This document shows, piece after piece, positions 3,720 to 16,903 of a stretch of 26,579 nucleotides of DNA (positions are counted from its first letter, which is position 1; every line of letters starts with the position of its first letter). The stretch is from a virus: UHGV virus genome UHGV-1484038, one strand, 5' to 3'. Under the pieces are notes generated by a model. That model ran no database searches, had not been told where the DNA came from, and saw only the letters and a list, made by a program, of their open reading frames with translations. Position numbers and translations under genes: made by a program.

Positions 3720-4271
3720 ATGAATGATATTTCTATCGAATATCTGAAAGAAGCACTGGAATACGCACCAGATACTGGTGTTATCCGTTGGAAGCAGCGA
3801 CCAAAAATTCATTTTAAGACCGAAAATTCTTGGCGGGCGACCAATGCTAATTTTGCTGGAAAAGTAGCAGGCGCACGTGATAGCGATGGATATTTGCGTA
3901 TCGGGATATGCGGCCGGTTATATAGATCTCATCGTGTAGCCTGGGCGTTACATTACGGCTACTGGCCTGATAATGAGATTGATCACATTTCAGGCGATAG
4001 GAGTGATAACCGCATAGACAACTTGCGATCAGTAACTTCGGCAGCCAATAGCAAAAATTTGCGCCTTTACTCCACAAATAAAACCGGTATCCCAGGAGTA
4101 GGTTGGTATAAAGCGCGGGGAAAGTGGAGAGCAAAGATAAACGTCTCTGGGAAGGTGAAGCATATTGGTTACTTCGATGATTTCCGTGAAGCGGTGAAAG
4201 CAAGAAAGGCTGCCGAGATGCAGTTGCAATATCACAAAAATCACGGAACCAGAGACAGGCTCACTTTCTAA
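3720..4271 (+). CDS. HNH homing endonuclease with C-terminal AP2-like DNA-binding domain
   Basis: HRVAWALHYGYWPDNEIDHISGDRSDNRIDNLRSVT (HNH_3-type motif) followed by GVGWYKARGKWRAKINVSGKVKHIGYFDDFREAVKARKAAE (AP2-like). The gene is visibly more AT-rich than its neighbours. Confidence 0.85.
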   Translation: MNDISIEYLKEALEYAPDTGVIRWKQRPKIHFKTENSWRATNANFAGKVAGARDSDGYLRIGICGRLYRSHRVAWALHYGYWPDNEIDHISGDRSDNRIDNLRSVTSAANSKNLRLYSTNKTGIPGVGWYKARGKWRAKINVSGKVKHIGYFDDFREAVKARKAAEMQLQYHKNHGTRDRLTF

Positions 4272-4285
4272 AAGGTAAAGACGCT

Positions 4286-4804
4286 ATGAATAATCCGTCA
4301 GTTATTCCGGCCTTCGACTTCCGCGAAATGGTCACGACCCTCGACAACAAGATAATCACCACATCACTCAAGGTGGCGGATTACTTTGGCAAGCGACACA
4401 AAGACGTTTTGCGTGCCATACGTAACCTGAAATGCTCCGATGACTTCACCCAGCGCAATTTTGCGCCCATTGATTTCATTGATAAAAATGGCGATGTTCA
4501 GCCTATGTATAACATCACCCGCGACGGATGCATGATGCTAGTGATGGGATTCACTGGCAAAACAGCTGCCGCAGTGAAGGAGTGTTACATCAATGCCTTC
4601 AACTGGATGGCCGAGCAGCTAAACCGGCGCATGGCGATGGGTGAAGAATTGCAGCATCGCTACGCCATCAAAGAAACGCGCTCAAAGCTGAAAGGCACGA
4701 TCGGAAGCCGTTTGATGAACGAGCGGAAGAAAGAGAAGCGCGTCCTGGAGCTCGAACATGAGCACATCATGCAGGTAACGCAGCCGGAATTACTTATTGG
4801 CTGA
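4286..4804 (+). CDS. rha: Rha family phage regulatory protein
   Basis: N-terminal ...ITTSLKVADYFGKRHKDVLRAIRNL...FTQRNF...YNITRDGCMMLVMGFTGKTAAAVKECYINAF matches the Rha (phage pRha) domain pattern. Rha genes sit between lysis and packaging genes in P22-like phages. Confidence 0.8.
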   Translation: MNNPSVIPAFDFREMVTTLDNKIITTSLKVADYFGKRHKDVLRAIRNLKCSDDFTQRNFAPIDFIDKNGDVQPMYNITRDGCMMLVMGFTGKTAAAVKECYINAFNWMAEQLNRRMAMGEELQHRYAIKETRSKLKGTIGSRLMNERKKEKRVLELEHEHIMQVTQPELLIG

Positions 4805-4828: not shown

Positions 4829-5485
4829 TTGAGGGGCTTCGATAATGGAGCACTGGAATTATTCATGAACAGACCACACCCACCAGCGCATTTTACGATG
4901 CCACCTGACCCGAAGCCGTACATCAGCATTATGCCCGCTAATGACGTTGGCGAGTGGCTGAATCAGCACATCCTGAGCGATGAGGGTGACCTCTACAACC
5001 ATGACCACCAGCATTTGCTTGAAGCGGATCTGTGCTTTCTCTGGGCATCGAACGCTTTCGAGAAGAAAGGGCGTTCCGTGCTGGGGCAGGCGGAAGAAGT
5101 GGCAATGCGGGCCGGAGGCTGGCAGAAAGCGCGGATGGAGCAGCAGATGTATGAATGGTTCGGCAGGGTGCCGCAGTTCATCATCACGCTGGCCGCCGAT
5201 TACTGCTCGCAATGTTCCGATCTGGAATTCTGCGCGCTGATAGAGCACGAGCTTTATCACATCTGCCAAGCGACAGATGAATTTGGTGCGCCGAAGTTCA
5301 CGCAGGAAGGGCAGCCAAAGCTGAAGCTGCGCGGCCATGACGTGGAAGAGTTTGTGGGCGTGGTTCGCCGTTACGGTGCGAGCCGGGACGTGCAGGAAAT
5401 GATTGATGCGGCGAATCAGCCAGCGGAGGTTGCTCATCTCGATATTGCCAGAGCGTGCGGGACGTGCATGCTGCGACTGGCTTAA
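4829..5485 (+). CDS. Putative zinc metallopeptidase-like protein (HExxH motif), function unknown
   Basis: 218-aa ORF with HELYH at ...ALIEHELYHICQ... and several Cys pairs (CSQCS, CGTC). Start may be the internal Met at 4865. The antisense ORF 4859-5554 is rejected as a shadow. Confidence 0.6.
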   Translation: MRGFDNGALELFMNRPHPPAHFTMPPDPKPYISIMPANDVGEWLNQHILSDEGDLYNHDHQHLLEADLCFLWASNAFEKKGRSVLGQAEEVAMRAGGWQKARMEQQMYEWFGRVPQFIITLAADYCSQCSDLEFCALIEHELYHICQATDEFGAPKFTQEGQPKLKLRGHDVEEFVGVVRRYGASRDVQEMIDAANQPAEVAHLDIARACGTCMLRLA

Positions 5486-15845: not shown

Positions 15846-16286
15846 ATGGCAACTTATTCTTTTCTCGATGTAACCGCGTCGCTCACCGGGCCGACCGGCG
15901 TTATCGATCTTGGTCAGGGTTCTGCGAACTCTGAGGAAGGTATCACCCAGACTATGGGCGGCAACAAGAACACCATGACCATCGGTGCCGATGGCGAAGT
16001 GATGCACAGCCTGCACGCCGATAAGTCAGGCACCATTACGGTGACGCTGCTGAAAACCTCCCCGGTGAACAAGAAGCTGTCTCTGGCGTATAACGCGCAA
16101 AGCCAGTCCTCTGCCACCTGGGGAAATAACGTGATCGTCATTCGCAACACGGCATCGGGTGATATTTCTACTGCGCGTTCGTGTGCATTCCAGAAACAGC
16201 CTGATTTCAATAACGCCAAAGAGGGCGGAACCGTAGCCTGGGTATTCGATTGCGGCAAGATTGACCAGCTTCTCGGGGAGTTTTAA
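15846..16286 (+). CDS. Tail tube protein
   Basis: 146-aa protein immediately after the sheath gene, with strong Shine-Dalgarno AAGGAG; beta-rich composition. Confidence 0.65.
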   Translation: MATYSFLDVTASLTGPTGVIDLGQGSANSEEGITQTMGGNKNTMTIGADGEVMHSLHADKSGTITVTLLKTSPVNKKLSLAYNAQSQSSATWGNNVIVIRNTASGDISTARSCAFQKQPDFNNAKEGGTVAWVFDCGKIDQLLGEF

Positions 16287-16289
16287 CGC

Positions 16290-16715
16290 ATGGAATTCGA
16301 AATTAAAGGCGTGAAATATCGCACCGCAAAGCTCAGCGTTTTCGAACAGCTGAAGGTGTCCCGCAAGCTGTTGCCGGTTCTGGCCGGGATGGTTTCGGAC
16401 TTCCGGAGCGTTCAGGAGAAGATCAGCAGCAAAGACACCGAAGGCGCGATGGCTACCATCCTGCCAAAGATTGCCAATGCTGTGTCCGATCTGAGTGATG
16501 GCGACGTGGACGCTATCCTGTTCCCCTGTCTTTCCGTTGTTTCACGCGAGCACATGAAAGGCTGGGTGCCGGTCTGCCAGCATGGCGAAATGGCGTTTGA
16601 CGATATCGACCTGCTTACCATGCTGCAACTGGTGGCGCGGGTGGTCGCCGACTCGCTGGGAAATTTTTTGCAAGGACTCCCTACCAGCGAGACGCCCACC
16701 CCGCCAGCGGAATAA
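16290..16715 (+). CDS. Tail assembly chaperone (zero-frame product)
   Basis: 141-aa acidic protein directly upstream of the tape measure gene, with a slippery GGGAAATTTTTT run near its 3' end. Confidence 0.65.
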   Translation: MEFEIKGVKYRTAKLSVFEQLKVSRKLLPVLAGMVSDFRSVQEKISSKDTEGAMATILPKIANAVSDLSDGDVDAILFPCLSVVSREHMKGWVPVCQHGEMAFDDIDLLTMLQLVARVVADSLGNFLQGLPTSETPTPPAE

Positions 16716-16903
16716 CCTTCAACAGCCTGCCGGGCGGTGAAGACTTTATTCTTCGTCCGGCGCTTGCCTTCCATATTGACCAGAAAGACCTTAACAGCGG
16801 TGCGGTAGACCTCTGCCGTATCGCGCTTCTCAATGACTACCTCGACATGCGCGAGGATAACGACGCCCGGGTAGATAAATGGAGAGCGGCCAATGAGCGG
16901 TAA
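16658..16903 (+). CDS. Tail assembly chaperone -1 frameshift extension (C-terminal part of the fusion product)
   Basis: Overlapping slippery heptamers G_GGA_AAT (16658-16664) and A_AAT_TTT (16661-16667). I translated the -1 frame from 16658 to the TAA at 16901-16903 by hand and found no stop. Confidence 0.5.
   Translation, partial: GKFFARTPYQRDAHPASGITFNSLPGGEDFILRPALAFHIDQKDLNSGAVDLCRIALLNDYLDMREDNDARVDKWRAANER

Follow-up and report, generated by a model that had tools for sequence, protein, structure and literature searches.

UHGV virus genome UHGV-1484038 was analysed as one stretch of 26,579 nucleotides (nt), referred to here as the window, with a focus on its tail assembly chaperone gene and on a second reading frame that overlaps the 3′ end of this gene. 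The chaperone open reading frame (ORF) occupies positions 16290-16715 of the plus strand, between the tail tube gene and the tape measure gene. Its normal translation product is a G-like protein of 141 amino acids (aa), which matches the Pfam family Phage_TAC_15 (PF21822; 4.4e-33, scoring 114.9 bits where the curated cut-off is 22), as well as PHROG 1688, 'tail assembly chaperone' (3.4e-57). Close to the gene's 3′ end, positions 16658-16669 read GGGAAATTTTTT, a sequence found as a single copy in the window, for a chance expectation of 0.01. The zero frame at this point (16656-16673) is CTG GGA AAT TTT TTG CAA, encoding L G N F L Q, and the chaperone stop codon follows 55 nt from the start of the run and 44 nt from its end.

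The -1 frame is open for just about 20 codons upstream of the run. From 16658 onwards it comprises 81 sense codons followed by a TAA at 16901-16903, and since the tape measure gene starts with an ATG at 16893, the -1 stop lies 11 nt inside that gene. These values agree with the initial annotation, which had placed the run about 50 nt before the chaperone stop and had given the same length and end point for the -1 frame. The part of this frame that would be added to the chaperone (16670-16903, plus strand; 77 codons and the TAA) makes up the T-like C-terminal part of a predicted fusion product of 204 aa. The 81-aa translation matches PHROG 4364, 'unknown function' (2.2e-17), and contains a DUF6889 domain (Pfam PF21829, 1.4e-11) at residues 42-77, which correspond to positions 16781-16888 of the plus strand. 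Positions 16670-16715 of the same strand form a dual-coding overlap, in which the zero frame encodes the chaperone tail QGLPTSETPTPPAE and its stop, while the -1 frame encodes ARTPYQRDAHPASG and continues beyond it.

In an AlphaFold model of the 141-aa form, with a predicted local distance difference test (pLDDT) score of 81, the chain is folded up to a last helix at residues 108-128, after which 129-141 lack order. This places the slip codons, 125-127, at the domain boundary, and the zero-frame tail would be a short floppy end that is replaced by about 77 residues in the long form. A structure model of the DUF6889 part was discarded, its pLDDT of 64 being too weak.

Conservation and coding signal of the -1 extension

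For comparison, 146 related loci from bacterial genomes and viral contigs were collected and reduced to 57 lineages with less than 92% identity around the site. In nearly all lineages the -1 extension is about 77 codons long and stops a few nt inside the tape measure gene. Its conserved peptide starts right after the T run and follows the pattern xRTP[YR]xRD...LPxGED...VDLxxIAxxNDxL...DNxxRxxxWRxxNE. The zero-frame stop lies 45 nt past the heptamer in nearly all relatives, and both peptides of the overlap are conserved, which accounts for an invariant ACTCCC downstream of the run as a result of dual coding.

The region past the zero-frame stop was then tested for coding potential through pairwise differences among 54 diverged relatives. 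By codon position 1, 2 and 3 of the -1 frame, the differences amount to 0.316, 0.253 and 0.556, respectively. Codons that differ synonymously and non-synonymously number 25236 and 40363 in the -1 frame, compared with 6798 and 59046, and 4850 and 60517, in the other two frames. The -1 extension thus has a clear protein-coding signature, with an excess of third-position and synonymous differences in the -1 frame only. Among 55 lineages, no conserved canonical start codon was found for the -1 ORF: in 41 of them the stretch from the upstream -1 stop to +75 nt contains no canonical start, and the starts in the remainder are scattered.

More than 140 loci and 40 phage records share the two-frame layout. 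The phage records were matched when the 204-aa fusion was compared by tblastn with 50,697 phage records; among the matches listed, all are split into two frames except the weakest, Providencia phage PSTCR3. They include phages of Bordetella, Ralstonia, Edwardsiella, Burkholderia and Acinetobacter, at 30-40% identity. The chaperone family also occurs in E. coli prophages, being present in at least 119 (window allele) and at least 337 (SEN34-like allele) of 5426 complete genomes.

The slip site and its stimulators

Three overlapping heptamers in the X_XXY_YYZ phase are found on the plus strand of the slip run: G_GGA_AAT at 16658-16664, A_AAT_TTT at 16661-16667 and T_TTT_TTG at 16664-16670. The initial annotation had listed two overlapping heptamers, the first and second of these, and both are indeed present and in phase; the third, whose sequence is that of the P2 E/E+E′ shift site, had been overlooked. 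It had also regarded tandem heptamers as unusual, but overlapping heptamers turn out to be the rule in this chaperone family. In-phase heptamers occur 33 times across the 8164 codons of the window genes, against 32 expected. Only at the slip cluster and at one trivial gene junction does a heptamer lead into a -1 frame that passes the zero-frame stop. The heptamers alone are hence not beyond chance, and what lends them significance is that the -1 frame is conserved and carries a coding signal.

In the lineages with a Gly-Asn-Phe motif, GGAAATTTTTT shows no change at synonymous sites, with GGA as the only codon for Gly, AAT for Asn and TTT for Phe. The neighbouring codons vary freely, with Asp as GAT (29) or GAC (27), Ser as any of six codons, and Leu as CTG (42), TTG (8), CTC (4) or CTT (3). 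The codon after Phe is TTG in 52 lineages, TTT in 2, TTC in 2 and TTA in 1, so that TT is kept despite a residue change to Phe. In 7 of the 57 lineages the first G of G_GGA_AAT is replaced by C or T, as part of Leu codon variants, and this heptamer, the least conserved and least supported of the three, is lost. Two lineages with Ser AGT in place of Asn retain a T_TTT_TTN heptamer only, namely an Erwinia prophage (L039; GGA AGT TTT TTG) and a Limnobaculum prophage (L032; GGT AGT TTT TTT).

The more distant phages present a range of sequences at the homologous codons. Burkholderia phages Magia and BgManors32 have GGC CCT TTT, that is, C_CCT_TTT at the homologous codon pair, and Acinetobacter phage Ab105-1phi has GGA AAT TTT ATT, that is, A_AAT_TTT without a T6 run. 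A Ralstonia phage has GGT TTT TTC, which provides both G_GGT_TTT and T_TTT_TTC. In Burkholderia E192a and Edwardsiella ZHS only the tetramer T_TTT is present, at the Phe codon, and in Bordetella phage IFTN9 (GGA AAT ACT TTC) the sole perfect heptamer is G_GGA_AAT, accompanied by T_TTC. From these sequences the family-wide constant is an A-site Phe codon preceded by T, to which A_AAT_TTT is the homologue in the window, and T_TTT_TTG is an addition typical of Enterobacterales. The Erwinia and Limnobaculum sites had suggested T_TTT_TTG as the sole site of slippage. This idea was dropped, since the distant phages carry C_CCT_TTT or A_AAT_TTT one codon pair earlier and since A_AAU_UUU exceeds U_UUU_UUG in E. 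coli reporters when a stimulator is present.

In these reporters, tested with no stimulator, with the IS911 stimulators and with the IS3 pseudoknot, respectively, frameshifting amounts to 0.069, 0.112 and 1.05% for G_GGA_AAU, to 0.070, 0.355 and 11.4% for A_AAU_UUU, and to 0.118, 0.247 and 0.765% for U_UUU_UUG (PMC4066793, Table S3). G_GGA_AAT, the least conserved heptamer and a poor shifter in E. coli (PMC4066793), is the weakest candidate, and the sequence comparison points to slippage on A_AAT_TTT_TTG. The two slip positions would give products that differ at residue 127 only (...GNFFARTP versus ...GNFLARTP). The predicted junction peptides are VVADSLGNFFAR for a slip on A_AAT_TTT or G_GGA_AAT and VVADSLGNFLAR for a slip on T_TTT_TTG, and VVADSLGNFLQGLPTSETPTPPAE is the predicted peptide of the short form.

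A downstream stimulatory RNA structure, which the initial annotation had proposed to look for by folding, is absent. Single-sequence folds of the downstream region are not better than those of shuffled sequences (z-scores of -0.98 and +0.90), RNAalifold predicts 0 pairs for the downstream region of 34 diverged sequences, and Rfam returned no match. Upstream of the run, a candidate Shine-Dalgarno-like stimulator, GGGTGGTCG, is located at 16639-16647 on the plus strand, 13 nt before A_AAT_TTT. Its duplex with the 3′ end of 16S ribosomal RNA (rRNA) is predicted at -12.2 kcal/mol, the strongest in the entire gene. Among the 57 lineages, the best duplex in the window 6-17 nt upstream averages -10.0, compared with -3.95 in control windows, and in 10 of 12 distant relatives the top-ranked rRNA match falls at the Shine-Dalgarno-like position, although the sequences differ. 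When the local peptide is recoded synonymously, weighted by codon usage, just 1.1% of the recodings attain -12.2, and 55 of the 57 lineages retain GTG as the Val codon at 16641-16643. The element is conserved beyond the amino-acid constraint, and a stimulatory role for it is suggested.

Proposed mechanism and rival explanations

Programmed -1 frameshifting, by which a short and a long chaperone are made from one gene, is very probably the correct reading of this arrangement. The assignment to the G/GT-type chaperone frameshift in the initial annotation is borne out by two Pfam domains in two frames, the conserved layout, the coding signature of the -1 frame, the lack of a conserved start codon and the presence of annotated homologues. 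The account that follows, of the slippage and its rate, of the heptamer involved, of what the Shine-Dalgarno-like element does and of the function in tail assembly, is inferred. Most ribosomes would read to the stop at 16713-16715 and release the 141-aa chaperone. A small fraction would slip back by one nt on A_AAT_TTT_TTG (16661-16670), with transfer RNAs (tRNAs) for Asn and Phe, or for Phe and Leu, in the P and A sites. Base pairing between GGGUGGUCG, 13 nt upstream, and the tail of the 16S rRNA would probably aid the slip, which would proceed without a downstream RNA structure. The slipped ribosomes would then read 77 further codons in the -1 frame, up to 16903, which results in a 204-aa form with an unchanged folded N-terminal domain and a new C-terminal DUF6889 domain. 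By analogy with gpG/gpGT of lambda and E/E+E′ of P2, both forms would coat the tape measure protein, their presumed substrate, and the rare long form would recruit the tube protein, allowing tube and sheath to polymerise to the correct length. The C-terminal domain of the long isoform may accordingly be the partner of the tube protein, as suggested by gpGT and gpV of lambda (PMC5009743). The same analogy would leave neither chaperone form in the virion.

A -1 frameshift in tail assembly chaperone genes, of the lambda G/GT type, was reportedly described as conserved by Xu, Hendrix and Duda in 2004. The window resembles lambda (G_GGA_AAG) in that the gene is located between the major tail or tube gene and the tape measure gene and in that the -1 slip occurs near its 3′ end. 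In lambda, a minor long form with a C-terminal domain of its own is greatly outnumbered by the short form, and neither enters the virion (PMC5009743); the G:GT ratio is about 30:1, and the efficiency in P2 is 2-3 fold higher (PMC5009743). A G_GGA_AAN heptamer is likewise found in the window, but its last base is T, which makes it a poor shifter in E. coli (PMC4066793), and two more heptamers follow it. Unlike lambda, moreover, the tail encoded here is not that of a siphovirus but a contractile one of the E217/Pam3 type, and a sequence relationship between the two chaperones is not detectable, as they belong to different Pfam families.

Closer to the present case is P2, a myophage in which slippage at TTTTTTG without a hairpin is experimentally established for E/E+E′ (PMC3091744). 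The window shares with it TTTTTTG in matching phase, the lack of a downstream hairpin and the location just before the tape measure gene (PMC3091744). P2 differs in having another tail module and a single heptamer, compared with the overlapping A_AAT_TTT that is shared here with distant relatives. The chaperone family is also called different, although generic 'tail assembly chaperone' labels (Phage_TAC_15, PHROG 1688) do not settle the relationship to gpE. As regards the upstream element, dnaX and IS911 both have an rRNA-complementary sequence 6-17 nt upstream of the heptamer that stimulates -1 shifting (PMC4066793). The predicted stimulator of the window has a comparable position, with a spacer of 13 nt. 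Unlike the window, where no downstream structure is found, dnaX and IS911 have a downstream hairpin or pseudoknot of their own, as well as the very shifty A_AAA_AAG.

Homologues have already been annotated in this way. Klebsiella phage Mulock (CPT_Mulock_014/015) is 56% identical to the fusion, with the two-frame layout and an identical TTGGGAAATTTTTTG, and Burkholderia phage Magia (CPT_Magia_015/016) is about 37% identical, with the same layout but with C_CCT_TTT as the slip sequence. GenBank lists a joined 'tape measure chaperone frameshift product' for both phages. These products exist as annotation only, the genome announcement containing no discussion of the frameshift.

Several points weigh against programmed frameshifting or against parts of the mechanism proposed above. 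The interpretation is strongly supported by comparison, but this support is comparative only, both here and family-wide, and the frameshift annotations in GenBank are themselves predictions. Without a stimulator, all three heptamers shift at 0.07-0.12% in E. coli, against a background of about 0.055% (PMC4066793), and the fold z-scores, RNAalifold and Rfam have revealed no downstream stimulator. The Shine-Dalgarno-like element overlaps a conserved Arg-Val-Val and the lineages compared are related, so that part of its conservation is inherited; furthermore, Acinetobacter phage Ab105-1phi does not have such an element. Sequence by itself cannot apportion the slippage between A_AAT_TTT and T_TTT_TTG. 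Finally, fold searches of the N-terminal domain gave no link to a solved chaperone structure; a sequence search of the PDB found no relative.

A variant of the frameshift reading, which we consider possible though rather doubtful, is that of a composite cassette free of RNA structure. It would consist of the upstream rRNA-pairing element and G_GGA_AAT_TTT_TTG, with each heptamer contributing a little and with the slip position drifting along the run in evolution while the product stays constant. DUF6889/PHROG 4364, instead of standing for separate proteins, would then be the tube-recruiting 'T domain' of contractile-tail phages of the E217/Pam3 type. The sole surviving site is the first heptamer in Bordetella, the second in Acinetobacter and Burkholderia, and the third in Erwinia and Limnobaculum.

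The fusion could also arise at the level of RNA, if RNA polymerase were to insert one U too many at the T6 run, with the fusion then encoded in frame by a minority of the messenger RNAs. The T6 homopolymer is indeed present and conserved in Enterobacterales, a T7 variant at the DNA level yields exactly the in-frame fusion, and E. coli genes avoid both UUUUUUU and AAAAAAA, for which transcriptional slippage may be the reason (PMC4066793). However, some relatives with the two-frame layout have T4 only, as in Burkholderia (CCCTTTTAT) and Acinetobacter (AAATTTTATT), and Bordetella has no run, from which it follows that a homopolymer run cannot be the mechanism of the family. Efficient slippage of bacterial polymerases involves runs of about 8-9, and T6 is short by this measure. 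Since the conserved synonymous positions of GGA and AAT and the upstream Shine-Dalgarno-like element make sense only under ribosomal slippage, we regard a transcriptional origin as highly improbable. Much the same can be said of DUF6889 as an independent small protein, made through its own initiation or through re-initiation after the chaperone stop. PGAP and other pipelines do call separate 'DUF6889 family' proteins of 42-75 aa, RefSeq has a protein of 27 aa starting at an ATC at 16820, and PHROG 4364 is a stand-alone family of 54 aa. Yet the annotated DUF6889 starts vary between genomes, in keeping with the unconserved start codon described above. The conserved, coding-type -1 peptide (ARTP...LPGGED) begins right after the T run, about 50 codons upstream of the RefSeq start, and overlaps the chaperone tail; the phase of the extension is that of a -1 slip in every relative. 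Separate initiation is thus very unlikely.

There is, finally, the suggestion that the two frames represent a broken gene, in which a one-base deletion or a sequencing error has disrupted a single ORF of the 213-aa type in a decaying prophage. In-frame T7 alleles do exist (P0004; E. coli ISC7, CDL28562.1), but T6 and two frames are found in more than 140 loci, in the viable phage isolates Mulock, Hafnia yong1 and SEN34 and in the complete E. coli genomes that were checked. We therefore give this explanation almost no credence. The T7 form itself was followed up separately. A SEN34-like T7 allele, GGGAAATTTTTTTGCC, is found at positions 2469-2490 of locus L002 (a Logan contig, SRR23924998), where chaperone and DUF6889 form one ORF of 213 aa. 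The 90% cluster of this allele comprises 16 sequences, and n=10 is given for E. coli under UniRef100 W1F673. Each of the 40 nearest complete-genome relatives listed, those of 99.7% identity included, is one base shorter (that is, T6), and when IMG/VR was searched with a T7 15-mer, none of the 98 matches lay in a chaperone gene, all being unrelated chance matches. The T7 form is therefore a rare mutant or an error, and it could stem from mutation in a defective prophage or from faulty assembly of the sequence. If lambda is a guide, a phage with the long form only should be tail-defective.

Genomic context and annotation

In order along the window come RusA, a Q antiterminator, a lysozyme and Rz, then the genes for terminase, portal and capsid, and then a tail module of the contractile E217/Pam3/KPP10 type, with sheath (DUF3383), tube, Phage_TAC_15 chaperone, tape measure (SLT), Dit-like, plug, hub and baseplate J-like genes. 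The tail tube gene (15846-16286, plus strand; Pfam KPP10_Orf10, 5.8e-60) encodes the presumed partner of the C-terminal domain of the long isoform. The tape measure gene (16893-19160, plus strand; PHROG 2276, 'tail length tape measure protein', 1.3e-219) encodes a protein with a C-terminal lytic transglycosylase domain (Pfam SLT, 1.9e-24). This gene content confirms the view of the initial annotation that a myovirus-type tail module is attached to a lambdoid backbone. The suggestion that a chaperone frameshift is unusual in such a context is not upheld, as frameshifts of this kind are known in myophages, P2 for example. Mulock, which is myoviral by electron microscopy and temperate, has lambda-like integration, recombination, lysogeny control, replication and lysis (PMC6856289). 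Given its identical slip sequence and the existing annotation, neither the context nor the mechanism is new. Most likely, then, the frameshift is real, strongly conserved and of a well-known kind, already annotated in related phages, and the finding is an ordinary one.

It adds one further example of the conserved chaperone frameshift and a natural series of alternative slip sequences at one codon, in which a candidate upstream Shine-Dalgarno stimulator would replace a downstream structure. If DUF6889/PHROG 4364 is a frameshift-encoded C-terminal domain, a family labelled 'unknown' would gain a function. Useful by-products are the revised layout of the site, the likely stimulator upstream of it and the identity of DUF6889, and the finding matters mainly for annotation. 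None of the inspected RefSeq records of E. coli prophages contains the long isoform, and a short 'DUF6889 family protein' takes its place. In the one record for which coordinates were examined, this is the 27-aa protein with the ATC start (16820-16903 of the window, equivalent to 3531-3614 of L001), which we consider spurious. The 'DUF6889 family proteins' of 42-75 aa in the databases have arbitrary starts. A joint MAFFT alignment of the fusion with DUF6889 fragments misplaced the fragments and was left unused. Literature searches found no papers on DUF6889 and nothing specific on E217 in combination with a chaperone frameshift. It should also be noted that the DUF6889 fragment is sometimes labelled 'lytic transglycosylase', a name apparently taken over from the tape measure gene next to it.

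Three further observations concern the surroundings of the site. GGAGAG at 16881-16886, which serves the tape measure gene as ribosome binding site, is 6 nt before the ATG at 16893 and within the end of the -1 ORF. It falls in the last codons of this ORF (AAA TGG AGA, K W R), so that the conserved Trp-Arg of DUF6889 and the ribosome binding site constrain common bases. Between the lysis cassette and the terminase genes, 3720-4271 encodes an HNH endonuclease, 4286-4804 a Rha-family regulator and 4829-5485 a putative phage metallopeptidase; these three are accessory genes in a typical moron position. Lastly, an in-phase A_AAG_GGT is found at 19109-19115, 45 nt upstream of the tape measure stop. 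The -1 frame at this heptamer is that of the Dit-like gene (19160-19786; ATGA overlap), and a slip there would join the tape measure protein to a baseplate protein; the heptamer is probably a coincidence of the gene junction.

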